Below, in pieces: positions 3,906 to 49,400 of a stretch of 64,000 nt of DNA. The DNA comes from Phyllobates terribilis (taxonomy: Eukaryota): the NCBI RefSeq assembly GCF_046119375.1, contig NW_027362765.1, forward strand, positions 252,960,001-253,024,000, given 5' to 3'. Below the pieces are notes generated by a model that saw only the letters and a list, made by a program, of their open reading frames with translations, was not told the origin of the DNA and did no database searches. Position numbers and translations under genes: made by a program. The first letter of the stretch is position 1. Every line of letters begins with the position of its first letter.

Positions 3906-6283
3906 CAGGGCCGGCTCCAGGTTTTCATGGGCCCTGGGCAAAAGAGTCTCAGTGGGCACCTTTAACACATAGTATGATTCATGATGCACAGATACAGCAG
4001 ATAAATATACAGGGGTATGGAAAGTGTTCAGACCCCTACAAATTTTTCACTCTGTTTCATTGCAGCCATTTGGTAAATTCGAAAATGTTCATTTTTTTTC
4101 TCATTAAAGTACACTCTGCACCCCATCTTGACTGAAAAAAAACAGAAATGTTGAAATTTTTGCAAACTTATTCAAAAAGAAAAACTGAAACATCACATGG
4201 TCATAAGTATTCAGATCCTTTGCTCAGACACTTATTTAAGTCACATGCTGTCCATTTCCTTGTGATCCTCCTTGAGATGGTTCTACTCCTTCATTGGAGA
4301 ACAGGTGTGTTTAATTAAACGGATAGGACTTGATTTGGAAAGGCACACACCTGTCTATATAAGACCTCACAGCTCACAGTGCATGTTAGACCAAATGAGA
4401 ATCATGAGCTCAAAGGAACTGCCCAAGGAGCTCAGAGACAGAACTGTGGCAAGGCACAGATCTGGCCAAGGTTACAAAAGAATTTCTGCATTACTCAAGG
4501 TCCCTAAGAGCACAGTGGCCTCCATAATCCTTAACTGGAAGAAGTTTGGGACCAGTAGAAGTCTTCCTAGACCTGGCTGTCCAGCCAAACTGAGCAAACG
4601 TGGGAGAAGAGCCTTGGTGAGAGAGGTAAAGAAGATCTCCAAGATCACTGTGGCTGAGCTCCAGCGATGCAGTATGGAGATCGGAGAAAGTTCCACAAAG
4701 TCAACTATCACTGAAGCCCTCCACCAGTCAGGCCTTTATGGCAGAGTGGCCCGATGGAAGCCTTTGCTCAGTGCAAGACATATGAAAGCCTGCATAGAAT
4801 TTGCTCAAAAACACATGAAGGACTCACAAACTATGAGAAATAAGATTCTCTGGTCTGATGAGACGAAGATAGAACTTTTTGGTGATAATTCTAAGCGGTA
4901 TGTGTGGAGAAAACCAGGCACAGCTCGTCACCTGCCCAATACAATGCCAACAGTGAAACATGGTGGTGGCAGCATCATGCTATGGGGGTGTTTTTCAGCT
5001 GCAGGGACAGGATGACTGGTTGCAACTGAAGGAAACATGAATGCGGCCAAGTACAGAGATATCCTGGATGAAAACCTCTTCCAGAGTGCTCTGGACCTCA
5101 GACTTGGCCGAAGGTTCACCTTCCAACAAGACAATGACCCTAAGCACAGAGCTAAAATAACAAAGGAGTGGCATCAGAACAACTCTGTGACCATTCTTAA
5201 CTGGCTCAGCCAGAGCCCTGACCTAAATCCAATTGAGCATCTCTGGAGAGACCTGAAAATGGCTGTCCACCAACGTTCACCATCCAACCTGACGGAACGG
5301 GAGAGGATCCCCAAATCCAGGTGTGAAAAACTTGTTGTATCATTCCCAAGACGACTCATGGCTGTACTAGCTCAAAAGGGTGCTTCTACTCAATACTGAG
5401 CAAAGGGTCTGAATACTTATGACCATGTGATACTTCAGTTTTTCCTTTTATAAATTGCAAAAAATTTTACATTTCTGTTTTTTTTCAGTCAAGATGGAGT
5501 GCAGAGTGTACTTTAATGAGAAAAAAATGAACTTTTTAGAATTTACCAAATGGCTGCAATGAAACAGAGTGAAAAATTTAAAGGGGTCTGAATACTTTCC
5601 GGACCCACTGTATGTATAGTACAATGTAAAGGTTTCATTTACTTTACTGAGTGATATTTATTGTAAATCCCACAATAGCTCCCTCCTGAGCTATTGTAGG
5701 ATTTACATACAGTACAATGAGCCCCATATAATGCTTCCTACAGAATAATGGACCTCATATAATGCTCCATACAGAATAATAAGCCCAAGATAATGCTCCA
5801 TACAGAATAATGAGCCCCATATAATACTCCATACAGAAAAATGGGCCCCATATAATGCTCAATATATAATGGGTCCCAAATAACGCTCCATACATGACGG
5901 GCCCCATACAATGCTTCATAATGAAAAAAAAAATCAAACACTCAACTCTCCTCGCTGGCCACTGCTCTGTTCCGGACTCCTCAGCGTAGCTATCTTCCCG
6001 CTCTCTGCACTGTGACTGCTCAGCAGAGGGCATGCTGTAGTGACATCATCGTGCCCTCTGCCACGAGACGTCACAGTCAGGAGACGCAGACAAGACAGGA
6101 CCTGCAGAGGAGTGAGGAGAGGTAAGTATTGCAAGTGCCGGGGCCCTAAGCAAGTGGGGGGGAGGGGGCCCACTTGAGGAGCTGGCACCGGGCCCCCACG
6201 ACTCACGGGCTCCATAGCCCGTTGGTGTCCCCGATGGCGAGTGGGCCCCCCCGCTTCCTCACAGCCCAGGTGAGCCGGGCCTG
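3906..6283. mobile_element. hAT-type non-autonomous element interrupted by Tc1
   Basis: 8-bp TSD ATCACTGA at 3898-3905 and 6284-6291, TIR CAGG(G/C)CCGGCTC, internal ~29-bp repeats at 5718-5915. Confidence 0.85.
4010..5610 (+). mobile_element. Tc1 transposon, defective transposase at ~4404-5399
   Basis: Long TIRs and TA flanks. WSDETK / QDNDPKH / SPDLNPIE motifs, a stop at 5013-15 and a small internal deletion. Confidence 0.95.
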
Positions 6284-19400: not shown

Positions 19401-22400
19401 AAGATGAGTACTTTTACAAAGTGCTTCTAAAAAAAAGAAACAACTTTGCAATTTTCTTATTATTAGAATTGTGCCCCATTATCCCCAAATTTTTAATTCT
19501 TTATTTGTTTTCTAGGAAATTGGCTGCTGTCGTAGCCAAACATGCACAGGGCCTACAAGCACTTTCATAGTGAGCCTTTAAGCACTGCACTGAGGCTGGC
19601 CAGATCGCATTGTTAGCTTTGGTCCCGGCCAGCTTCAGTTCCTTAGCGCTTCCAATACAGTCGACACAATTCTAACTTATGTAGCAGCATCTGGAGAGCC
19701 CAGATCAGGCCTGCAGCGCAACGAGGCTGGTCTGAACAGTCACTCAATAGGGAGCGCCCACCCCCAAGTAATCAGAAAGTCGGAAAGCAGGAGAGCAGTG
19801 TGCTTTATAACAATTGTTTACAAACCTGGATAGCTCCAAACTAAAAGGGATTTTCTGGAATATAAAGTGGTTTTGCCTTTTTTTCCCTCTAGAAACAGTG
19901 ACGCTCCTAAGGCGTAATAGCATACAAAGTCAAAAGAGCAGGATCGGCAGTGTTTTTGTGGGTTGGTGGAGGGAAGGAAAAAGGAGACCCTCATTTTCTC
20001 AATTTTTTTTTTTTTTTAGAGCCGAATTTGACTAAGCACTTGGGAAACCACCAATGCCTGTCTGTGGAAGACATGATTTAAAAAGAAAAAAAAAAGACAA
20101 AATTAATTCAGTTGTCTCACAAAAATGACACCTTTGTATGCTGGCAAATGATCAAAAAAAGCACTCTCTCTTAAAAGAAAAGTAAGGTTCAAAGATTGCA
20201 ATAATGGTTATGTCGTCCAAAGCCTACAATAGAGGGGAGTTAGCGCCCTTTGTTCTTTGACTGGGGATCTGCCATTTAACTCAAAAGGAATGTATTACAA
20301 TGCGATAAAAAAAATACACACAAAACTGTTCATTTTCATCAGCAAAAGTCTTAAAAGGGGTTGTCCCACAAGCAAAGTACATTTTAATTAATAGATTTTG
20401 GAATAATAATAAGTTCAACAATTCGATGTTTAAATAAAATGTTCCTGTGCTGAGATAATCTTATAAATGTGCCCCTGCTGTGTACTGTGTAATGGCCATG
20501 TCTGACCGTGCTGGAAAATGGTCTGATCATACCACAGCTCCTGGGCAGAGGAGGAAGCAAAAGAGAGTATACAGACAGGACAGCAGGGGATCACAGCTGA
20601 TTCATTTTGTGAAGTAATACATTTCACTCTCTGTTTTTAAACAACGTTTTATCTCAAATTAAGAATCAGCTGCAACATCCTACTGTAACGTCTGTATACT
20701 TTTTTTTCTTTCCTCCCCTGCCCAGGAGATATGGTATGATCAGACCATGTTCCTGTACGGTCAGACACAGCCATTACACAGTACACAGCAGGGGCACATT
20801 TATAAGATTATCTCAGCACAGGAACATTTTTTAACTCATCTAATTGTGGAACTTATTATTCCAAGATTTATTGATTAAAAAATTTATATGTGGAAAACCC
20901 CATTAAAATACTTTTTAAGCATTTCATAGCATTTCTAACTGGGTACACTACCTAATTTTTCTACTTTTTCCCTTCTCTTCTCAATTTCTTCTTGATATTT
21001 GTCTCTTGTTTCCAAGCCTAGAGAACCTTTCTCAATCTTGTCTATTCTGTTCACAACAGAATCTGGTGCTGGAGGACCACATAAAGTGCTTGCTTCGGCT
21101 GGTACAGGAGTGGTTGGACTTTTGAGATCTGCTTCTTGATGGCTGCCTGCCTCTTTGTCTTTGATCTTTGGTCTTCTCTTCACTGTATCGGATTCAGTGA
21201 GGTGGAATTCCAGCTCCGCATTTACTTTGGAGCCATGATCCTCAGTAAGGAATTTAGAATCAAGATTTGGCTTAGGACTGATAAGGGGTTTGGCTCCTAT
21301 AGAAACCTCTTTTTTTGTGTCGGGAATCAGCATTGTTTCAGAGCTGGCTTGTGAATGCACAGGAGTTCGTGACTGTACCGCTGAGAACAGTTCTGCAGCT
21401 GTGACAAACTCTGCCTTGGTTGATGGAGGTTTGGGTCTTTGTTTGATGGTAAGGTTTCCCTCCTCAGCAAAAGGAATGCTCTCACTTGAGCTATGCTGTG
21501 ATGAGATAGTTTCCTCTTTTCTCTCATCTTCTTGTCTTACTGCAAGTGGCAACGATAATCTCCCCTCCACTCCGGCGGCTGATTCACTCACTGTTCTTCT
21601 TCGAGCTCCAGAATTCTCCAAGACTACAGTTTTAGAAACCTCTGTTGGTTTAAACTCCAGCTGTCCCTCCAGACTTGCCGCTATGCTTTTCACAGAGTTA
21701 TTTCCAACAGTAGTGCCGCCATCCACACTAGACATGGAACTTAGTCTCTTAGGAGGTGGGGGAGGTGGTCCTTTCCTGCGTGCCCGTACAGCAAAGGATT
21801 GACTCCGTAGGACTTTCTTTACTGGCTGCCCATTTGTGAGGGAGCTACGACCTGGACGACGCGTAAGTGTAGCATAAGAACTCAGCGTCACTGATCCTGA
21901 AGTTGCCGTCTTCTCATCGTCCTCTGGTTCTCCATCTGACAAAGCATAGCGACATACGCTCAATGATCGTTTTTTCATAGAGGGCTTGGGAGGAGGCACA
22001 GGAGGCTCTGGACGTACAGAGGAACCATTTGCAATACTTTGTAATTGGTCCATTCCCTCTGGCAAGTTCCTTTCTGGTAAATTGGAGTCCAAAACTTTAA
22101 AGTTAGTGAGTACTGGCGCTTGGAGAGTCATAGAGTCTTGAGAGTGACCTGAGCCCTGCGAACGAGAACTAATACTCTCCTGACTATATGAACGCCTTCC
22201 CGTACACAGCATCTCTCCACCATGTGTTAATGCACTTTGGAGTTCCCGGCTTAACTCCACATTTTGAAAGGTCTGTAGCTTGGGGGTAACTGGTGGTTCT
22301 CCATTTTCAAGGAGCTCTACAACAGGAACAGATGACAATGAACCTGATGTTCTAGATCTTAAGGTGCCTCCGCTTGTGTATCCCTTCTGGAGATCAAGCA

Positions 22401-25400
22401 AGCGTTTGACACCCAGAAGCAACTTCTTTTGGTGACCTGAGAAATGTAATAAAAATCATTTTAGTAATATATCTGTTTCTGTATATACATAAAACAAGTG
22501 TGAGACAACTAAAAATGATTTCATGCACAAGCTCTTTTACCTAGTCTATGAATTCCAATCTCCTGCAGGTCCTCCCATGTCAGTTCTGTCACACTGGTCA
22601 GAGATTCGTATCCATTCTCCGACAGCTGCTTGTGGTACTCAGGAAGCCCTAACTGAGAAAGCCAATCCCACACGTCTACCTAAATAACCAAATGAGAAGA
22701 GACAGTTCCATTACATAGAACAAGAACTTAAACTGATGCTTTGAGAGAGTGGATATGGGTTTCTCTACATTATAGGCTGCCCTTGTTTTTCCAGCCTTTA
22801 TTTAAATATCTGATTTCTTCTGACAGATAGTTGTTTCTAAACTATCATCATCTCGGTGTCAGGTCGCAGATAGGGCACCCCTAAATCTAAATTAATTTCA
22901 TGCATTTTTGTTGTTTTGTACATTCCTATGTCCCAGTTTCAAACACTATAATGGGGTTCTGTCCCTCAGGACCTGTAAAAGGCTCCAAATTTAAAATATA
23001 ATGTCTGTAAGAATGATTGGGGTTACAAAAAACAAAGTTTAAATAAAAGGTGGTGACTAGAAAGACAAGAGAATTCTTACTGGTGTTTTTTGAGGAAGTC
23101 CATCTGTAACGCTCATTCTGCCGATCTCAGTAGAAATTTTCTTCCTGTGCCCAGGTTTTGTTACACCAATTGCTGTGAGATCCTATAGAATAAATGGGAG
23201 ATAATGAAGTATGTACAGAATGATGACTGAGTTTTGCGTGTGAATCCGTTATTGCTTAATCGCCCTCACCTCTGGGGTCATGCGGCTGATTGTCGAAAGA
23301 TCATAGCCTGCCGACAAAAAGTTCCCCACATACATGTCCAGCTGGAAGCTACGAAGCCAGCAATATATAAGCTCTGCGTCCTAAAAATAAAGCAGACAAA
23401 AGGGTTACAATGTATATAGTATGTTTAGCAAAAATGTCTATCATCTAATAAGACTCACAACTGTCAATAAGACGTTTCCCCAGAACTCATTTTAAACTTT
23501 GCACCTAATACAGTACAGACCAAAAGTTTGGACACACCTTCTCATTTAAAGATTTTTCTGTATTTTCAAGACTTTGAAAATTGTACATTCACACTGAATG
23601 CATCAAAACTATGAATTAACACATGTGGAATTATATACTTAACAAAAAAGTGTGAAACAAATGAAAATATGTCTTATATTCTAGGGTCTTCAAAGTAGCC
23701 ACCTTTTGCTTTGATGACTGCTTTGCACACTCTTGGCATTCTCTTGATGAGCTTCAAGAGGTAGTCACCGGAAATGGTCTTCCAACAATCTTGAAGGAGT
23801 TCCCAGAGATGTTTAGCACTTGTTGGCCCTTTTGCCTTCACTCTGCGGTCCAGCTCACCCCAAACCATCTCGATTGGGTTCAGGTCTGGTGACTGTGGAG
23901 GCCAGGTCATCTGGCGTAGCACCCTGTCACTCTCCTTCTTGGTCAAATAGCCCTTACACAGCCTGGAGGTGTGTTTGGGGTCATTGTCCTGTTGAAAATT
24001 AAATGATAGTCCAACTAAACGCAAACCGGATGGAATAGCATGCCGCTGCAAGATGCTGTGGTAGCCATGCTGGTTCAGTATGCCTTCAGTTTTGAATAAA
24101 TCCCCAACAGTGTCACCAGCAAAGCACCCCCAAACCGTCACACCTCCTCCTCCATGCTTCATGGTAGCAACAAGGCATGTAGAGTCCATCCGTTCACCTT
24201 TTCTGCGTCGCACAAAGACACGGTGGTTGAAACCAAAGATCTCAAATTTGGACTCATCAGACCAAAGCACAGATTTCCACTGGTCTAATGTCCATTCCTT
24301 GTGTTCTTTAGCCCAAACAAGTCTCTTCTGCTTGTTGCCTGTCCTTAGCAGTGGTTTCCTAGCAGCTATTTTACCATGAAGGCCTGCTGCACAAAGTCTC
24401 CTCTTAACAGCTGTTGTAAAGATGTATCTGCTGCTAGAACTCTATGTGGCATTCACCTGGTCTCTAATCTGAGCTGCTGTTAACCTGCGATTTCTGAGGC
24501 TGGTGACTCGGATAAACTTATCCTCAGAAGCAGAGGTGACTCTTGGTCTTCCTTTCCTGGGGCGGTCCTCATGTGAGCCAGTTTCTTTGTAGCACTTGAT
24601 GGTTTTTGCAACTGCACTTGGGGACACTTTCAAAGTTTTCCCAATTTTTCGCACTGACAGACCTTCATTTCTTAAAGTAATGATGGCCACTTGTTTTTCT
24701 TTACTTAGCTGCTTTTTTCTTGCCATAATACAAATTCTAACAGTCTATTCAGTAGGACTATCAGCTGTGTATCCACCAGACTTCTGCACAACACAACTGA
24801 TGGTCCCAACCCCATTTATAATGCAAAAAATCCCACTTATTAAACCTGACAGGGCACACCTGTGAAGTGAAAACCATTTCCGGTGACTACCTCTTGAAGC
24901 TCATCAAGAGAATGCCAAGAGTGTGCAAAGCAGTCATCAAAGCAAAAGGTGGCTACTTTGAAGAACCTAGAATAGAAGACATATTTTCAGTTGTTTCACA
25001 CTTTTTTGTTAAGTATATAATTCAACATGTGTTAATTCATAGTTTTGATGCTTTCAGTGTGAATGTACAGTTTTCAAAGTCATGAAAATACAGAAAAATC
25101 TTTAAATGAGAAGGTGTGTCCAAACTTTTGGTCTGTACTGTATATCATTTTTATACAGGTTGGGTAACTTTGTAAATACACTGAATTACCTATCTGACAC
25201 TAATCCTGAGTGACAGCCTGTATAGTAGCCCAGGGAAGCAGTCTGAGGTTCCTGGTTCCTTCTGGAATCAGACACCACAACGCCAAACAACTAAAGCAGT
25301 TGAGCTTAACTTCCTCAGTGCAAAGGATTCTGGGAGAGATAGATTTTCGGCGTCACACCGTATGGAGGTTGATTTAAAGACTACATTTCCCTAACTGCAG

Positions 25401-37400: not shown

Positions 37401-40400
37401 AAGGATCTCATCTCGGTACCTAAAGGCAGTCAGGCTACCTCTGGCGAGCACATGGAAGGCTGTGTGGCCCTCCAAAGAAATGCCACCCAACACCATTACT
37501 GCCAAACCGGTCATGCTGAAGGATGTTGCAGGCAGCAGATAGTTCTCCACGGCGTCTTCAGACTCTGTCACGTCTGTCACATGTGCTCACTGTGACCCTG
37601 CTTTCATCTGTGAAGAGCGACTTTGCCAATCCTGGTGTTCTGTGGCAAATGCAAAGCGTCCTGCACGGTGTTGGGCTGTGAGCACAACCCCCATCTGTGG
37701 ACGACAGGCCCTCATACCACCCTCATGGAGACGGTTTCTAACTGTTTGTGCAGACACATGCACATTTGTGGCCTGCTGGAGGTCATTTTGCAGGGCTCTG
37801 GCAGTGCTCCTCCTTGCACAAAGGCGGAGGTAGCGGTCCTGCTGCTGTTGTTGCCCTCCTACGGCCCCCTCCACGTCTCCTGATGTACTAGCCTGTCTCC
37901 TGGTAGCGCCTCCAGCCTCTGGACACTACGTTGACAGACACAGGAAACCTTCTTGCCACAGCTCGCATTGATGTGCCATCCTGGATGAGCTGCACTACCT
38001 GAGCAACTTCTGTGGGTTGTAGAGTCTGTCTCATGCTACCACGAGTGTGAAAGTACCACCAACATTCAAAAGTGACCAAAACATCAGCTAGAAAGCATTG
38101 GTACTGAGATGTGGTCTGTGGTCCCCACCTGCAGAACCACTCCTTTATTGAGTGTGTCTTGATAATTGCCAATAATTTCCATCCATTGTCTATTCCATTT
38201 GCACAGCAGCATGTGAAATTGATTGTCAATCAGTGTTGCTTCCTAAGTGGACAGTTTGATTTCACAGAAGTTTGATTTACTTGGAGTTATATTCTGTTGT
38301 TTAAGTGTTCCCTTTATTTTTTTGAGCAGTGTAGCTCAATTTGATTCCATTCTGTTCCATGTGTCTCTTCCTCCAGAGATTTGCATTTAAAAGGTTTGTC
38401 TAGGATGAGAACATAAAGGATGCTTTCTTCCAGGAATAATCACCACTCTCATCTATAGGCTTTGTTTATTCCCAGTTTTTCGTTCTGGTGCTTTCATTTT
38501 GTCCTCGCCTTCTTCCAAGATTCATAACTTATTTTTCTGTCAATATAGTCATATAAGGGCAGGACAAGTTGTGGTTATGAATTACAACATTCATTTTGCC
38601 ATACAAGGTACTGACAAATGAGCAAAAAAAAAAAAAAATCCAAGTGTCATGAAATGGTAAAAAAAATGCAATTCCACAATATTTTTTTGGGTTTTGTTTT
38701 TACAGCGTTCATTATGTTGTAAAAATTACCTGTTGACATGATTTTTCAGGTCAGTACAATTACAGTGATACCAAACTTCCATGGATTTGTTTTTAATCCT
38801 AGTAGTTAAAAAAAATCTTAATTAAAAAAAAAAAAAATACGTTTTTGTTGTTGGAATATTTCAGAGAACCGTAACATTTATATTTTTCCATCGAAGGAGC
38901 TGTCTAATGACTTGTGTGTTTTGCACGGCAAGCTGATTTTTCATTGATCTCATTTTTGGGGTACATAAGAAATTGAGGACTTTTTTTAGTTTTATTTTTT
39001 ACACAGGTGTGATTATTAAAATACAGAAATCTGTTTTTTCAAATTATTTTTCTTTAAGGCATTGGCGTACCAATGAATTAATTTTATATTTTGATAGGCC
39101 TGACTTTTACACATGTGGCGATATCTGATATATATTTTACTAATTTATTTATTTTTAATGATGAAAAAGGTGGGGCATTTTGAATTCTTAGGTTTGTTTT
39201 TGTTTTCAGTCCTCTCGAGGCCATTTACCCACGGCAATTCTTTGATCACTTGTTCTATATATTACAATATGACCCACTGAATGCTTCGTACAGGCCTAAT
39301 CCCGATTCTAATTTGTGGGGGTCTGACCAGTGGTGTACCATGTGACTGTTATGGTGCCCATCAGTCGCGGATGGCCACACCCTTGCCTGGCGTCACAATG
39401 TCAGAGATACAGTTTAGTAGTAAAATGCAATGGTCTCAATGCAGCAGGCTCGATTATGTCAATATATAACGCCTGCTGCATAAAGCCTCAGTCCACATAC
39501 TGCACAGACTGGGCCAGCGCATCAGGGGAATGGGGCTAGTTCATATATTTTTTTTTAACATTGTCCATACTTGTGGGAGGGTGTGCGATGGGGGCCATGA
39601 TGCTGTGTGAAGGCTGGCAGTGGAATAAAGGGGACATAATACTGTGTGGATCTCAATGTATGGGGGAATTATGAGGGCATTACACTGTGTGGAGGCCATG
39701 TGTGGGCTGTATGGGCCATAATACTGTGTGGGTGGCGGGAGGTGGGGACCATTATACTATCTTGAGGGTCACCACACTGCATTGGGGGCACTGTGCCAGC
39801 ATCATACTGTGCTGGGTGCACAGTAGCGGCATCACAACTTGAATGTGGGTGAATTTACTGTGGTGGTCTCATGCTGTGTGTTGGGGACATGATACTCTCT
39901 TGAGGTCAAGAGGGGTATTGTAGTGGGTGAGAACACTAAGCAGCTGCAATATGGGCACAATTATTGAGTTTGTGCTGTAATACAAGTCCGTCTTGAAAAA
40001 TTGGGAGGTATGACCTTCTGTAACTGCGAATATGCAATGTGACTCCATCTCAGCTGAATTATTATTGAGCGTGTGGGGGTTAAATTAAGACTTTTGCTAT
40101 GTAGTCCCATGATTTCTATGTACGCCTTTGGGTCTAACCTTTACTGTTTACACTTTTTCCTGTGGGAAAATCAAATAAATCATATGCAGGAATCTCTATT
40201 GCTTCAGAACCACAAGCGTCAGTTTCCATATTTCCCATTCATTATAAGACTGACTATACATGGGGCAGGAAATTGGATGTGCACCCATATTTTTTAGATC
40301 AATTGTGTGACAGTGGTCCATCCCGCAGCAATCAGGCATTTCTAGTGTAGCGCCCCGAGGGCTCGGCCGCTACAGGGGTATTGCACCTCAGACCAGAGGT

Positions 40401-43400
40401 GTGGTATTCCACTCCCGGGTAAGGATGGAGTATGGACCAGGGCTCAGTTAGCTGCATACAGCACACTCACCCCATTTCCGAGGGACAGCTCAACGGTACT
40501 CCCATTAGACAGAAATGCAGGTACGACAGACCATGTCCCTGGCTGGAGTGGGGAGGGGGGAGGAATACCCAGTGATGTAGGAGCAGATAGGGGACGGTTC
40601 CTGAGCGTAGGTAGGAGCCCATTGGTTGCTGGTCACCTGGGCTCATGGCTAGAGGGAGGTATAAAAGGTGGGCACCATCTTAGGACAGTCAGTTCAGTTC
40701 AGTCTGTGCAGAGAGAGGAGAAGACAGGGAGTAGAGGCTCTGTAGGCGCTCTACTCAAGAGTGGGCCTAGAGAGAGGCCGAGGAGGAGAGTGGAGAGAGA
40801 GAGGAGGTGAAGGGGAGCTGGGATTACTTCTCAGCCCAGCTCCACGAGAAAGGAGAAGAAGGAGGAACAGAGAAGGGAAAAGAAGAGAAAGAAACAGAAG
40901 GGCTCAGGAACAAGAAGGAAGAAGGGACCCTAAGAACCCACGAGAATACAGGGTGAAGGGTCAGGCAGATTAAGGGTGCCGGATCCCAAGTTGGTGGAGG
41001 AGAAACTACCCTCAGCCAAAGACCGGACGTCGTGATCATTTATTGGTGCGACACCTCATTAAACCTGCTAGGAAGGCACCATATAGAACAGCGGGGAACG
41101 GGATCCACGTTTACCCGCACAAGTTCGCGGCAGCTGGACAAAAGTGGGTCACTGGTGAGGCAGGCCAGAGGAAGGATTGAAGGGGGTCCTGAGCCATACT
41201 TCCGAGCTGCCTGGGAGTTGACCGAGCCCCTCACCTGGTGGACGCAACACGGCTCGGGCAGTCATTGCCAGCTGAAGTGACTTGGATATTAACCGTGAGT
41301 AAAGACCCTGGACTGCAGTACGTTGTCTGTGTGCTTTTTCGCTCCTCCGGCACTACCGGTACTGGGACTCTCAACACCATCACTCCCACCATCCACTACA
41401 CTGCCCTGGGGCCACACTCTTCCCGTGGGGAGTCACACCATCCCAGCTGCATACATCATCAGCCCCAGCGGTCTGCCTTGCTGCAGCGGTTCCTAATAGC
41501 AGCAATCCACGGGTGGCATAGTCGGACATCACTTAAGATTTATAAGGGGACTGCCACTGGTCTGACCACCCTGAGCCACGGACCGGGTCGCCACTGCTAC
41601 CCCCCATCGTTCCCCTATTGCCCGGATCCGAGTGCCCCACGGCCCAGGGGGCAAGTCAGCTTTGGCGTAGTCGGCAGGATTTCGTGCCCGCTAACAACGG
41701 GTACTGCGCGCCTGAAGAGAAAGAGACTGTTTTATTGAGATTGACTGTGTTGGAAAATGGCGCCCGCCCCAGAAGAACGAGCGCCATAATGTGCGCGCCA
41801 AAAGACCACAGGAGGCCGCCTTCCATCGTGGGCCAGGTCCCAGAATGGCGCCAAAGAAGGAGCCCGCCCCCAACAGCCATGAGCGCGGCTGTGGAGATGT
41901 CCATCAAAGTGGGGGGGCTGCCCCTGAAAGTGATCGTTACCAAGTTGCCCCGGGACCACCCAATGGGGGTGGGAAGAGAAGAAAACTGTGGGGCAGGGCA
42001 CGGTCTGGATCAGCCTAGACAGACCGCACCCGGGAATGGACGCGTTCAACAGCACCAACCTGTTGGCCCGGAGCCTGCTGCAAGCCGGACCACCCTGCAG
42101 CCTGGCAGAGATCCTGGCGCAGCTCCCGAGAGACCCGGAGCGTGAGCAAGCTGCACTGGAGGACCTGGAGCGGAGGATGGTCCGAGTGCAGCGGGGTGCG
42201 CTCATCGAGTGGAGGGAGGAACTGGCCCGGCAGGCCGAAGCCCACCAGCGACAGGCCTCAACCGCACCCCGGAGTCTGCCTGCCTCTGAGGACGGCGCAG
42301 GAGGAGAGAGGACCGGAGGACTGAGGCAGGTACAGGGGACGTCACCACCCCAGGCCCAGCAACCGCAAGCCTGCCCCAGCCTCCCGTCGCAGAACCCGAA
42401 GCCCCACTCACCGCGCCTGTTGCCGAGCCGCCACTGCTCCCAGCTAGGCCTCAAGCGGCGAGCGCCGCGGCCACGCCCCGCCCCTTGACCCCGGGCGCCA
42501 TAAAGAAGGAAGCGTCATCGGCCCGGTCGCAAGGCCTGGTCAACCCGGGCGCCGCTACCCCACCAGCACCCCCTTCCCGGGCTGGGCCGCCACCAGACGT
42601 GACCAGAAGACCCCCGGCCTGGTCGCAAGGCCGAGTGCCCCCGGGCGCTGCTACCAGACCAGGTCCCCCCCACTATGCCATCGCTGGGCGTGGACCTATT
42701 TGCACATCATACCGGTCCGGATGGACTGCCGCTGGAGTGGCCGGCTGAAGTGACCAGCAGTCAGCCATGGAAAACCAAGCCCCCGCGCGAGCCTCTGATA
42801 CTGGCTCCAGAGCCCGTAGAGGTCATCCTACCCCCACTGGAGGACGCCCAATTTGAGTGGGACCCCGCCGGCAAGAACTTGATGGGGTTCACTCAAGAGA
42901 CCCGGGCAGACGCAGTCCGTCATCTGGAGGCTTGTCAGCAGCAACTGGCGACCTTCGAACGGCGGGAGAGGCGCGTCAGGGAGGAGCGGCTCCAGGCGAG
43001 GAGCAAAAACGCAAAGCCCGTCAAGACCCTCGGGCCGCCCGCGGTCCCCGAATCACCGGGACCATAATCAAATTCCATATGGAGAACGGTTGGGGCTTCA
43101 TCAGGGGCCCGGAAACGGCAGGCGACGTCTTTGTAACCCGCAGGGACGTTGAAAGCCACCTACCGGAGGGACACAGTGGCCGTGACCTCTACCCTGGTGA
43201 TGTGGTCACCTTTACCCGACACGAGGGCGCAAAAGGACCATATGCCCTACATGTACATCGACTCACCGAGGAGGAGCTGCAGCACTACGGCTGTGAGGAG
43301 AGCCAAGAGGACCCGGACGGGTCTGAAGAACCGTATGAGGAGGAAGAAGGAGCATATGGAGGACACCGCTACTAGTAAGTAGCAAAAGCATGTGTGTAAA

Positions 43401-46400
43401 TAGTTACCCGTCGGGGTAAAAGAACTGTTTCCAGAGAGTGTGTGGTCCCCGTTGGGACTGTTAAGAGACTGTCACCTGTGTGCCCCTCATCCCCTACCAG
43501 GCTGAGGACTGTGAGCAGCCATTCCCCTCCCCCTTTCCAACCGGCCGAGGACTGGGAACGGCCAACCCCCTGTAAATAGTTGCGCACCCTACTGGTTTTA
43601 TAAAAAGACTACCACGTCTACCTCGGGACAACGAGTCCCTCATGTTTACAAGTTTGCCAAGGTACCTGCACTTAAAAGAAGAATGCACACCTGGTCGCAA
43701 GTTGCACCGCCGCCAGGATCCAAGAATGTGTTTTGAAAATGTTTTCTTGCAAATGTTTTATATGAAAAGTTTTTATATGCTGCTAAATAGTGTTGTGAAT
43801 GTTTTCTATAGTGTTTATATGTCAAAAGAGTTCCAGAAGTATTAGTATGTGTTTTATAATAGTGTGACAAGAAAAGAAAAGTGTTTCTCATAAAGGCAAT
43901 TGAACCGTATTGCCCGTTTCCTGATGTGAAAAGTTTTAAAAAGTTTTGCATGTCCTGTAATTAACTGTTTTTGCTCTTTTCCAGCCCGAGGACGTGCTGT
44001 GGTTTACCAGGGGGAAATGTAGCGCCCCGAGGGCTCGGAAGCTACAGGGGTATTGCACCTCTGCCAGAGGTGTGGTATTCCACTCCCGGGTAAGGATGGA
44101 GTATGGACCAGGGCTCAGTTAGCTGCATACAGCACACTCACCCCATTTCCGAGGGACAGCTCAACGGTACTCCCATTAGACAGTAATGCAGGTACGACAG
44201 ACCATGTCCCTGGCTGGAGTGGGGAGGGGGGAGGAATACCCAGTGATGTAGGAGCAGATAGGGGACGGTTCCTGAGCGTAGGTGGGAGCCCATTGGTTGC
44301 TGGTCACCTGGGCTCATGGCTAGAGGGAGGTATAAAAGGTGGGCACCATCTTAGGGCAGTCAGTTCAGTTCAGTCTGTGCAGAGAGAGGAGAAGACAGGG
44401 AGTAGAGGCTCTGTAGGCGCTCTACTCCAGAGTGGGCCTAGAGAGAGGCCGAGGAGGAGAGTGGAGAGAGAGAGGAGGTGAAGGAGAGCTGGGATTACTT
44501 CTCAGCCCAGCTCCACGAGAAAGGAGAAGAAGGAGGAACAGAGAAGGGAAAAGAAGAGAAAGAAACAGAAGGGCTCAGGAACAAGAAGGAAGAAGGGACC
44601 CTAAGAACCCACGAGAATACAGGGTGAAGGGTCAGGCAGATTAAGGGTGCCGGATCCCAAGTTGGTGGAGGAGAAACTACCCTCAGCCAAAGACCGGACG
44701 TCGTGATCATTTATTGGTGCGACACCTCATTAAACCTGCTAGGAAGGCACCATATAGAACAGCGGGGAACGGGATCCACGTTTACCCGCACAAGTTCGCG
44801 GCAGCTGGACAAAAGTGGGTCACTGGTGAGGCAGGCCAGAGGAAGGATTGAAGGGGGTCCTGAGCCATACTTCCGAGCTGCCTGGGAGTTGACCGAGCCC
44901 CTCACCTGGTGGACGCAGCACGGCTCGGGCAGTCATTGCCAGCTGAAGTGACTTGGATATTAACCGTGAGTAAAGACCCTGGACTGCAGTACGTTGTCTG
45001 TGTGCTTTTTCGCTCCTCCGGCACTACCGGTACTGGGACTCTCACCACCATCACTCCCACCATCCACTACACTGCCCTGGGGCCACACTCTTCCCGTGGG
45101 GAGTGACACCATCCCAGCTGCATACATCATCAGCCCCAGCGGTCTGCCTTGCTGCGGCGGTTCCTAATAGCCGCAATCCACGGGTGGCGTAGTCGGACAT
45201 CACTTAAGACTTATAAGGGGACTGCCACTGGTCTGACCACCCTGAGCCACGGACCAGGTCGCCACTACTACCCCCCATCGTTCCCCTATTGCCCGGATCC
45301 GAGTGCCCCACGGCCCAGGGGGCGAGTCACTAGCATATACATTTAAACCACATACTGTATATTACCAATGCAGGGTGCAGTGTTTTTCTGCAGTGGTCTT
45401 TGATGATTTAAAAAAAGGGAAGAAAAGGTCAAGCTTATCCAAATTCATGTCAGTAATGAGGGGCACATACTTTCCACTTCCACCAGCAGTGGGTATTACA
45501 TGCACATACATAAACTAGAAGATGAGCTCTTTTATGAAGTGTAAGGTATAAATAAAAGTCAGAGCAATAGCAATCCCATAATCCCATAAACCAAATCTTA
45601 GTAACAGATAACAAATGTATTTGTAACACAAAGCTCATTCCCACAAATGAGCATATATGTGACGTTTCTCTCTAAACGGCTGCAGGCACGTCTATTCAGT
45701 AAACCAAACCTCAGCCACCACTAGCCCAAAAAAAAAAAAAGGTTAAAAGAAGGCCCTATCCATTATAGTAAGCCCATAACAAGGCCAAGTATGGGACATC
45801 ATCTTCTTCCCCATGGTAGCAGAGACAAAAACAGGCCATTCCTGTTTAGGCTGACTGTGATGCTGTATTTCCACAAGGGTGAAGATAAATGACCTTGACT
45901 CCCACGTCCATCACTCCATCACTCAAGACGGGACTGGGAATAAAAAGCAGCCCTGGCACACAAAATTCACCAGTCCACATACAATAAGTGTCCTCAACCG
46001 AAATCGTAGAACACTGACAGGTCGTGTCAAATTTTACTTTACTTGTTACACCACTAGCTTAAACGTGTTGGGTAACCACTTTAAAGGGGTTGTCCACTAC
46101 TCGGACAACCTCTTCTCAATCCGAATGTTTTCCTCTTTTAAAAAAATAAAACTTTTACATTCTCCTCAGATTTCGGCGTCGTTCCAGCAGTGTTAGCAAT
46201 CGGATTGCGTACCAGCCTTACGTCATGCGATCCCTGTAGCCAATCAGCACTGGCTTCACTCTACCCACCTTCGGACGTATCACATACATCTAGAGCAGCG
46301 GCTCTCAACCTGTGCGACTCGACCCCTTTGGGGGGTCACCTAAGACCATCGGAAATATGTGTTTTCTGATGGTCTTAGGCAGGGCCGCCATCAGGACATT

Positions 46401-49400
46401 ACTGCCCTAACTGCTGTATGGGGCCCAATGAACAGCGGTAAAGAGCTGCTCACTGGACTCCAGGGTATCGTGTGCAGGAGCGCAGCCACCGGCGGCTTAC
46501 ATCTCGGGGTAAGGAGCTTCAGCCTTGGAGCTCTCATGGCCGAATAGCCGTGCAGCTCCAAGGGAGTCCCTCCGCCTCTTCTGTAACGCGCTGGATTCAG
46601 CACGTACGTGACGACGTCATTGCGCGCCAGGATGTCAGTCCAGAAGTGGAGCTGCAGGGATTGTATGAGAGGTAAGTATGAAAAACTTTTTTTTTAATTA
46701 AATGGTCTTGGGGCACATGATAGACAGAGTCGGGGGTGGGGAGAGCACGTGATGCACTGGGAGGTGGGGAGAGCACGTGATGCACTGGGAGGTGGGGAGA
46801 GCACGTGATGCACTGGGAGGTGGGGAGAGCACGTGATGCACTGGGAGGTGGGGAGAGCACGTGAGGAACTGGGAGGTGGGGAGAGCACGTGAGGAACTGG
46901 GAGGTGGGGAGAGCACGTGAGGAACTGGGAGGTGGGGAGAGCACGTGAGGAACTGGGAGGTGGCGAGAGCACGTGAGGAACTGGGAGGTGGCGAGAGCAC
47001 ATGATGCACTGGGAGGTGGCGAGAGCACATGATGCACTGGGAGGTGGCGAGAGCACATGATGCACTGGGAGGTGGCGAGAGCACATGATGCACTGGGAGG
47101 TGGCGAGAGCACATGATGCACTGGGAGGTGGCGAGAGCACATGATGCACTGGGAGGTGGCGAGAGCACATGATGCACTGGGAGGTGGCGAGAGCACATGA
47201 TGCACTGGGAGGTGGCGAGAGCACATGATGCACTGGGAGGTGGCGAGAGCACATGATGCACTGGGAGGTGGCGAGAGCACATGATGCACTGGGAGGTGGC
47301 GAGAGCACATGATGCACTGGGAGGTGGCGAGAGCACATGATGCACTGGGAGGTGGCGAGAGCACATGATGCACTGGGAGGTGGCGAGAGCACATGATGCA
47401 CTGGAAGGTGGGGAGAGCACATGATGAACTGGAAGGTGGGGAGAGCACATGATGCACAGGGAGGTGGCGAGAGCACATGATGATAAAATTTCATTTATTT
47501 GTAATTAGAAACAAATATTTCACAATATATAATTACATATTGCTTTTGTGATTAATCACTATGCTTTAATGTTCAATTTGTAATAATGAAAATACATCCT
47601 GCATATCAGATGTTTACATTACAATTCATAACTGTAGCAAAATTACAGTTAAGAAATAGCAATGAAATGACGTCACCGCAGGTCCTGCAAGTACACCGCG
47701 GGACGCCGAGTAGAGAGAACACCGCCGGGAGCAGACCGGAGAGGTGAGTATACAGTTTTTTTTATTTTTAACTTTTTTATTTCATTTCTTTTTTTCACCG
47801 AGAGGTAGCCGGGATGAAGAGGAGTTGTAGTCTCCTCTTCATCCTGGGTACCACACGCACCGCGATTACGCTGCAAATTCGCGGCCATTGAATTTAATTG
47901 AAACGCAGCAAATCCACATATACCTGCGGGTTTGCTGCGTTTCAACGTTCCTCAATGGCCGCGAATTTGCAGCGTAATCGCGGTAGAAATGGTCATGCTG
48001 CGTTTTGCAACGCAATGCGAATTCGGCGCGCTAATTAGCGCATCATTTGCACAGCACATCCGAATTCACATTGCTTTGCATGGCAGACGGTTTTACAAGC
48101 GTTTTCGTGGCCATAAAAACGCCGCAAAAAAGCTACGTGGGCACATGGCCTTAAAGGGTCGCGGCATTAGAAAGGTTGAGAACCACTGATCTAGAGGAAG
48201 AGAGAGAGCAGCAGCACATCTGTGTGTGGCCGAGTACAGACAGTTATTCACCAACCGGCAGCAGGTCTCCTGACCTGAACTTTACAGCCTCATATATGAT
48301 TATGGGGTTGGCAATTTTGGGTCAAAAGACCTGTAGCCAGTTTGTGAATGACGGTCTGTAATCGGACCGTGACACACAGATGTGTGAATGTGGCCTTAAT
48401 TGAATAAATTGTCACAATTCTTCTATCAACAGTCTGGCAGTGTGCCATTATCCCTCCCAATATCAGACTGTGTAAGAACACATCCCTCTGAGAAGGAGAA
48501 TAGCGACGCCCAGTTGTCAGTTAGGTCTAGGCTACACTTTTTGAAGTGCTACATACAGATTTTGACCATTGTGCGGCAGATGAAGTTTTTCACGCTATTA
48601 ACCTGCAGATATGGAGTTAATCTGCTGGTTAATAGCGTTCTAAAGCTGTGCAGCTGACAGTCCGGCTACCAGGTGGAAATGTACTTTATTCCTTCTGGTG
48701 GCCTCCAGCTCTCACCCATAGAGGAGCGGCTCCAGTCACCGCTCAGTACATAGTGAGCGGCTGCTGTAACCATGCTCCGGCACTGATGGACTGGCGGCTC
48801 AGCAGTGCGTCAGTACAGAGCCGGCTGTCCATGACGGAGCATAGTTACAGCCACTACTCACTGTGTACAGAGCGATGAATGAAGATGCTGCCACAACGCT
48901 ATGGCTAAAAGCCGGAGGCCCCCAGGAATGAAGTTCATTTCCTCCTGGTAGGTGGACTGTCAGTGAGGCGGCCGGGGAGCTTTAGAAGGCTATTATCCTG
49001 CAGATTAACACCATATCTGAAGGGTAATAACATATTTTGACATAACATGTTCCCTTTACTGGCACTGTCCACTACTCGGACAACCCTTCTCAACCCCCAT
49101 GTTTCCCCCATAGTAAAATAATAACACTAATACCTCCAGTGTCGGCGCCGTTCTAGCGATATCAGCACTGGCTCTCCCGGGGTTCATGCAGACAAATCAG
49201 ACACCTGGAGCTCTCTCATTTCCTCCGAATGTCAACTACGTCAGAATGAGGGGAGAGTGAAACCGGGATCGAAGGCTAGTATAAGGGCAGAGACACATTG
49301 CCATATAACTCGTGCGAGGATTGTATTGCACTGAACGAACTGGCCGGCACCTCTCCTGACCGGAGCATGACAGCGTGATGGATTTCTATGCAGCTGTCAA

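Follow-up and report, generated by a model that had tools for sequence, protein, structure and literature searches.

A high-copy LTR retrotransposon family of the poison frog Phyllobates terribilis that carries a cold-shock-domain gene and no Gag or Pol

The stretch of Phyllobates terribilis DNA analyzed here (64,000 nt; assembly GCF_046119375.1, contig NW_027362765.1, positions 252,960,001 to 253,024,000 of the forward strand; hereafter the window) contains, at 40346..45329 on the + strand, a long terminal repeat (LTR) retroelement whose interior encodes a cold-shock domain (CSD) and no recognizable Gag or Pol. This copy is a dead, frameshifted member of a living family, and the family is real, unusual and, as far as our literature search reached, apparently undescribed. 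We lean towards the explanation that it is a high-copy family lacking Gag and Pol, likely packaged and copied by a gag-pol helper, whose protein likely serves as an RNA coat resembling that of YBX proteins.

The window element and its family

The element is bounded by LTRs of 1313 and 1312 bp with TG..CA ends and by a CTAG target-site duplication (TSD), and has a tRNA primer-binding site (PBS) and a polypurine tract (PPT). These cis signals, all named in the original prediction (a first reading made from the letters of the window), were borne out by sequence analysis and identify a non-autonomous Ty3/Gypsy-type LTR retrotransposon. The two LTRs are identical in 1294 of 1313 columns, a Kimura two-parameter distance of 0.0139, which would correspond to about 2.8 Myr of divergence at the rate of 2.5e-9 taken from PMC11152451. 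One of seven frames scanned in the 2,359-bp interior gave a Pfam match, to the CSD; tblastn with the Gag and Pol of the helper described below returned zero matches over the whole window, and none of 30 sampled copies had pol ahead of the PPT. By these measures the CSD element has no reverse transcriptase (RT), integrase or protease of its own, and the expected absence of pol domains and of a CCHC knuckle from the interior was upheld.

The features of the element are as follows.

40342..40345, no strand: left TSD, CTAG, from sequence
40346..41658, +: 5′ LTR, 1313 bp, TG..CA; the first ~950 bp (U3/R) are private to the CSD families
40621-40625 and 40660-40666, +: inverted CCAAT-like box and TATA-like box, from sequence; putative promoter elements
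41298..41716, +: block common with the gag-pol helper, running from an AGTAAA poly(A)-like signal through U5 and PBS into a leader of ~58 nt
41663..41680, +: PBS, 18 nt, complementary to the 3′ end of tRNA-Ser(TGA) plus CCA
41789..43375, +: single open reading frame (ORF), 545-630 aa long in open sister copies and broken here by four frame-disrupting indels
42135..42255, +: predicted long N-terminal helix; dN/dS 0.16-0.29 in most comparisons, 0.51 in B-D
42255..42840, +: disordered middle part, rich in Pro/Ala, in which W-S-Q-G motifs recur; dN/dS 0.5-0.7
42850..43045, +: FxW..LMGF motif and 45-residue helix/coiled coil entering the CSD; dN/dS 0.11; here in two frames
43055..43258, +: CSD, five-strand OB barrel (Pfam, AlphaFold, Foldseek)
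43268..43375, +: acidic tail, then a short basic end; stop codon at 43373-43375
43376..43984, +: AT-rich 3′ untranslated region (UTR) with two TGTANATA motifs (43395, 43571) and four TTTTAT/TTTTAAT motifs
43960..43984, +: splice-acceptor-like pyrimidine tract and CAG, a candidate by sequence; 30/30 sampled copies
44009..44017, +: PPT
44018..45329, +: 3′ LTR, 1312 bp
45330..45333, no strand: right TSD, CTAG, from sequence

Compared with three natural open copies, the ORF of the window copy, which belongs to subfamily A, carries frame-disrupting indels near 41958, 42315, 42664 and 42995. With these four indels lying between start codon and CSD, and a product of only 118 aa from the first ATG, the window copy is incapable of making the CSD protein. 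The proposed order of coiled coil, CSD and acidic tail is found in sister copies and fails in the window, where coil and CSD lie in different frames. The frame that leads from U5 across the PBS up to the ATG (e.g., window 41546-41788) was uninterrupted in 21 of the 22 CSD copies that had a start context, and an upstream non-AUG start in the leader is possible.

Across the 10.57-Gb host genome, a signature of the PPT and 3′ end of the element had 27,325 exact matches, and its reversed control had none. The first 30 matches by position comprised 26 with a CSD no more than 1.5 kb upstream, three with other parts of the ORF, one with neither and none with pol. From these numbers (27,325 x 26/30 x 5 kb) we roughly estimate a floor of ~24,000 elements or 120 Mb, ~1% of the assembly, which counts neither solo LTRs nor older copies. 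Protein searches gave 33,000-55,000 first-look candidates, of which the best 97-150 were scored, and these are not copy numbers; likewise, the 7,365 exact matches to a CSD core pattern are only a floor, since one Arg codon class was fixed in the pattern. Of 33 CSD elements, 30 had a 4-bp TSD, and median LTR identity was 99.8%. There are at least four subfamilies. Subfamily B is the youngest, with LTR pairs 99.7-100% identical and frames of 740-827 codons in 12/12 fetched copies (chosen by score), and subfamily C is older, with LTR pairs 83-97% identical where found.

Several lines of measurement indicate that the CSD ORF is under purifying selection at the family level. In 22 of 23 copies sampled by PBS position regardless of their ORF, dN/dS over the CSD was 0.11 at a dS of 0.79, with an interval of 0.07-0.18 that comes from codon resampling of pairs that are not independent; the coil region of the same sample also gave 0.11, and CSD distances at the three codon positions were 0.116, 0.071 and 0.356. 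Consistently low values (0.07-0.19, dS up to 1.9) were obtained for the CSD in all seven within- and between-subfamily sets, drawn from 26 of 28 copies (two lacked a long frame) that had been picked for long frames and are hence biased. Of the 23 CSD copies sampled by position, 16 have an uninterrupted frame (509-630 aa) between the conserved ATG and the end of the CSD. The proposal of a CSD selected across a family, as opposed to a one-off, decaying capture, was thus sustained, a dN/dS of 0.11 being far from the value near 1 expected of such a capture. Large retrotransposon derivatives (LARDs) are LTR elements without coding capacity; the present family is not of that kind, as its interior holds a conserved, selected ORF.

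The CSD itself is genuine, as predicted. It scored 36.6 bits against PF00313 (cut-off 27; E 4.2e-9) at 43055-43258, and CSD proteins of the older subfamily and of other genera scored 23.7-25 bits, below that cut-off. AlphaFold, given an alignment of 11 natural copies, modeled a five-strand OB barrel with pLDDT of 77-91 over the domain, for which the top Foldseek match was CspA (1mjc; target TM 0.87, rmsd 1.8), followed closely by YBX1, YBX2 and CARHSP1. In the sequence comparison, CspA and YBX1 scored equally at ~36 bits and LIN28 scored 16 bits; identity to YBX1 was 31-32%, which, together with a tail of only about 35 aa, places the protein outside the Y-box family, whose vertebrate members have a nearly invariant CSD and a long basic/acidic repeat tail. 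The RNP1 aromatics and the Phe of RNP2 hardly vary (W in 101, F in 102 and F in 100 of 102 copies). The predicted loss of the beta-1 Trp and RNP2 His extends to the whole family: Lys or Arg replaces the Trp in 102/102 copies, and Thr (80) or Asn (18) replaces the His in 98/102, with Arg at an RNP2 Phe position in 88/102. These positions follow CspB residue numbering, on an alignment made to CspA and YBX1. The model of the whole protein (mean pLDDT 50.6) consists of disorder, a helix at 117-156, the Pro/Ala-rich region, a helix at 385-429 that continues into the CSD, and an acidic tail modeled as disordered. ESM Atlas gave CSD leads, all below 0.9, for the C-terminal part only, and residues 1-170 had no usable match there.

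All 18 frog element CSDs in our tree formed one clade (100/100 support) with a long stem and separate from CSDE1; the tree spans 81 columns, its bootstrap had not settled, and it includes no YBX, LIN28 or CARHSP1 sequences. As the CSDE1 domains of the host group apart, CSDE1 was rejected as the CSD donor. The named relatives belong to Phyllobates, Ranitomeya variabilis, R. imitator and Anomaloglossus baeobatrachus, that is, to three dendrobatoid genera, and missing relatives in other frogs are uninformative because repeat ORFs are seldom annotated. Other matches inspected or named within the subset of the 150 top protein matches that was read (P0007, P0012, P0054, P0121) are unrelated multi-CSD proteins.

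Some further observations concern individual copies. At L044 (G000:C5:217252900-217262800), a subfamily-A element is inserted in the CSD of an older subfamily-C element, and L046 and L049 are head-to-tail double elements with a common middle LTR (three-LTR tandems). Contigs C205, C358, C417, C843, C894, C1120 and C1371 of G000 hold many equal-scoring 581-codon copies, nearly all on one strand and 100-400 kb apart, which represent either a large amplified unit or duplicated contigs and slightly inflate the counts. Gene annotators have joined the element CSD to real genes (P0002, P0006, P0008): public models fuse it to R3HCC1, a Harbinger-type transposase, an MIF4G protein and an astacin (P0002, P0003, P0006 and P0008), and these are likely annotation chimeras, exonisation also being possible. 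Intronless, partly duplicated CSDE1 retrocopies lie at L071-L076 (G000:C1:734.44 Mb), one of them entering LINE-like sequence, and CSDE1 exons lie at C2:702.8 Mb.

A probable gag-pol helper and its likely exchange with the CSD elements

The LTR end and PBS of the window element form a motif with 47,903 exact matches in the genome. The first 60 of these comprised 29 gag-pol elements, 23 CSD elements, six with partial CSD ORFs and two others, and a CSD was found in 0/29 of the gag-pol elements. The latter, which we call helpers (and the CSD elements passengers), are ~7.9 kb long and encode a PNMA-type Gag, zf-CCHC, protease, RT, RNase H and integrase. Their PNMA score is weak (27 bits) and the CCHC knuckle scored 18 bits, below its 20.8 cut-off, with its motif complete; a CX2CX4HX4C knuckle lies inside an open Gag frame in 17/29. 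Helper TSDs are 4 bp in 20/21 cases and similar in composition to those of passengers, and median helper LTR identity is 99.2%.

Aligned with one such helper (L182), the window element has a single common block, 87.7% identical over 422 columns, that starts exactly at AGTAAA; the U3/R and 3′ UTR of the two are unrelated. An autonomous partner with protease, RT, RNase H and integrase in that order, and with common cis signals, therefore exists, in keeping with the suggestion that the family moves by a helper's pol. Only the poly(A) signal, U5, PBS and leader are common to the two families, and the U3/R is not.

A tree of the common block (56 rows) intermingles helpers and passengers: its starred branches force at least five changes between the two, and two sister pairs of helper and passenger are supported. 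A single passenger clade was rejected on a 27-row subset (p-AU 2.4e-42) by a test devised after the first tree was seen. Mosaics of helper and passenger were also found (L184/L167 and L309/L321); in L309, the start of Gag is followed by half a CSD within one LTR pair. The PBS of subfamily C, which we take to be that of tRNA-Ser(CGA), differs from that of the window element and is common to an older gag-pol lineage: it has 540 exact matches, the first 30 of which comprised 25 older gag-pol elements, four with a CSD ORF and one mosaic. Because the U5 trees interleave both families and mosaics exist, this gag-pol Gypsy family is the likely helper, and the trees and mosaics have the pattern expected of template switching in particles that both families share. 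Judging from the shared signals, TSDs and mosaics, the passenger/helper relation and mobilization in trans are very probable.

Another abundant PNMA-Gag Gypsy family (L113-L142; 48,628 first-look candidates) was rejected as the helper on the basis of the top PF14893 loci, where 27 of 30 had another PBS, none had the Ser motif and blastn found no match to the element.

The PBS matches, in complement, the 3′ end of tRNA-Ser(TGA) genes in this genome (ARAGORN called two of four loci tRNA-Ser(TGA)). A second set of four other loci gave one tRNA-Ala and three without a call, and on reading these appear to be non-gene fragments. Six loci (L283-L286, L317, L318) have 30-50 nt of tRNA-Ser 3′ end with an encoded CCA beside sequence like the element leader, possibly over-extended primer copies.

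Possible roles of the cold-shock protein

CSDs are single-stranded nucleic-acid chaperones, and the element CSD may bind single-stranded RNA or DNA. We put at about even the chance that the protein is a YBX-like coat for germline RNA, acting partly in trans with a partial preference for its own RNA in cis. Under such a scheme, the private U3 would drive transcription of the passenger, and Pumilio- and CPE-type motifs in the 3′ UTR would time its translation in oocytes. The protein would oligomerize through its helices and bind RNA through the CSD and basic flanks, and coated RNA might last longer and enter helper Gag particles more often. Helper RT would then prime on tRNA-Ser and helper integrase insert the passenger copy, with template switching in mixed particles keeping the passenger U5 and PBS matched to the current helper. 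If the protein acts at least partly in trans, deletion derivatives can therefore ride along.

Like YBX1 and YBX2 (6ktc, 7f3i), the protein has a Pro/Ala-rich region before the CSD, a charged tail and a similar long barrel loop; unlike them, it has an altered RNP2, a long coiled coil before the CSD and no long basic/acidic repeat tail. YB-1 stabilizes the RNA of HIV and MLV and aids the production of MMTV (PMC6040738), and ova of the poison frog Oophaga are rich in Gypsy RNA (PMC6278860).

The 3′ UTR agrees with such timing. TGTANATA, which we take to be a Pumilio-type motif, occurs in 55 of 56 passenger 3′ UTRs (mean 1.9, against 0.05 per shuffled UTR and 0 in antisense) and within 40 nt of the stop codon in 53 passengers. 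TTTTAT/TTTTAAT, presumably CPE-type, averages 3.7 per passenger UTR vs. 0.5.

The coil and CSD are missing from four partial copies, in two cases through clean deletions at short repeats, and these two deletion junctions recur 100 and 62 times over many chromosomes. Intact lineages nonetheless dominate and remain under selection.

Several points weigh against an RNA coat of this kind. Since CSD-deleted derivatives have been amplified (100 and 62 dispersed copies), the CSD protein is not required in cis, and since TGTANATA also occurs in 20 of 23 helpers, the motif is not specific to the CSD gene. Three canonical base-stacking positions have changed (Trp to Lys/Arg, His to Thr/Asn and Phe to Arg), so an altered affinity or target is possible, and the low identity to YBX1 and equal score of E. 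coli CspA leave more than one donor possible. Finally, the position samples (PBS and PPT signature) were drawn from the first ~12.5 Mb of one chromosome, and the copies are related, such that counts are not independent events.

Among the alternatives, a trans-activator or Rev/Rec-like export factor acting on the private U3/R, as DNA or RNA, to increase transcription or unspliced export has a real, minority claim. The CSD families have a U3/R of their own that is unrelated to the helper U3/R, the protein has an acidic tail and the U3 an inverted CCAAT box, the splice-acceptor-like site precedes the PPT in 30/30 copies, and action in trans is compatible with the amplified CSD-less derivatives. 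Nevertheless, the acidic tail is among the regions least constrained between subfamilies (dN/dS 0.39-0.76), and a GTRAG donor near the stop codon was found in only 31 of 99 copies, which led us to reject a general splice donor at that position. Moreover, the helper, which has no CSD gene, ends in much the same acceptor-like sequence. RNA contigs cover the element with no clean splice joint (four runs, type guessed), which speaks neither for nor against expression. It is quite unlikely that the element is bipartite, the CSD family being a second segment that supplies both parts with an accessory factor, for example a shield against piRNA or decay. Equal numbers of passenger-type elements and helpers in the PBS sample (29/60 each), the youth of both by LTR identity, the repetition of the pairing under two PBS types and selection on a CSD ORF that is dispensable in cis would all fit; on the other hand, the helper has a complete, ordinary gag-pol set, the older PBS class has 25 helpers to four passengers and one mosaic, and parasitism with U5 capture accounts for the same trees. 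We also consider unlikely the more far-reaching idea of a two-part retrotransposon, in which enzyme and CSD-gene families would have stayed together in poison frogs for tens of millions of years, swapping U5 and PBS, with CSD-less cheaters as a third tier living off both. The germline coat protein of the second family would then shield the RNAs of both and account in part for how far Gypsy elements have amplified in these very large genomes.

Of the two roles offered by the original prediction, an accessory RNA-binding factor is still the best reading. The other was that the CSD replaces the zinc knuckle as a nucleocapsid substitute for primer annealing and packaging, as its C-terminal position, like that of nucleocapsid in Gag, and the known chaperone activity of CSDs might suggest. 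We now regard this as very improbable and largely refuted, because the protein has no capsid, the helper Gag keeps its own knuckle, and CSD-deleted derivatives transpose and have spread. Regarding the capsid, hhalign of the CSD protein against 15 helper Gags gave a probability of 0.1%, Pfam found the CSD and neither a capsid domain nor a CCHC knuckle in the ORF, and the AlphaFold model has two long helices and disorder with no capsid fold. Least probable of all, to the point of being nearly negligible, is neutral cargo, a captured host fragment that was passively amplified. The window copy is indeed dead, and capture of host CSDs by LTR elements is recurrent (PMC12287698); against this stand the dN/dS of 0.11 at a dS of 0.8, the codon-position distances, the 16/23 copies open from ATG through CSD, and the single clade (100/100) across three genera.

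Related systems and other features of the window

The original view that a CSD is not an LTR-element domain has to be qualified, as 46 bird endogenous retroviruses (ERVs) encode one (He et al. 2025, PMC12287698). Those ERVs likewise have PF00313 inside an LTR element, for which the authors suggest an adaptive post-transcriptional role; they are scattered, arose by many captures and belong to ERV-A/B and ERV-G groups found by RT (PMC12287698). By contrast, the frog family represents one capture, lacks Gag and Pol, has a Ty3/Gypsy partner and is estimated at 20,000+ copies, with purifying selection measured here; for the bird ERVs, the text consulted mentions no test of selection. The frog family falls outside the bird group in having no RT and a partner with a PNMA-type Gypsy Gag. 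The plant elements SNRE/SARE of soybean (with LTR swapping), Dasheng and BARE2 also lack enzymes, reach high copy number via a partner and exchange LTR parts, with no CSD mentioned in the text consulted (PMC4079214), whereas the frog swap covers exactly the poly(A) signal, U5, PBS and leader and leaves a private U3 and a selected non-Gag gene. Closer in host are Xenopus 1a11, xretpos(L) and lambda-olt 2-1, which are pol-less frog LTR elements with a single ORF (1a11, xretpos) and embryo expression; they differ, by description, in that the 1a11 protein is Gag-like, copies number tens to hundreds and the available text mentions no CSD or helper (PMC4585706). Bdelloid LTR elements similarly retain captured host-type domains in ORF3, but there the env, GDSL lipase or DEDDy exonuclease accompanies gag and pol, while the frog CSD ORF replaces both (PMC5408684).

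In a literature search that was not exhaustive, having missed the bird ERV paper, and that left Repbase and Dfam outside its scope, we came upon no account of a passenger family that carries only a CSD gene under selection, and the main texts of three poison-frog genome papers (PMC11152451, PMC12208295, PMC6278860) had no relevant occurrence of "cold". Non-autonomous elements usually lose genes, whereas the frog passenger has retained an RNA-binding domain of host type, acquired by capture and strongly selected; a passenger can therefore gain by an accessory protein of its own. The family is one abundant class overlooked by RT-based surveys; in Phyllobates, 62.6% of reads were unclassified repeats in one study (PMC12208295). 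It also offers a natural series of helpers, passengers and cheaters for study and a testable handle on unchecked Gypsy elements in poison-frog germlines.

Elsewhere in the window, a 506-aa frame at 20938-22455 (-) matches the Caskin proline-rich domain (PF16907, E 5e-34) and constitutes a large host exon; a Caskin gene may therefore contain the element or lie close to it. Remnants of Tc1/Sleeping-Beauty-type transposases occur at 4266-5012 (+) and 23677-24441 (-). Downstream of the element, a tandem array of ~35 units of 28 bp spans 46592-47591 and is followed by two short inverted repeats at 47799-47984.

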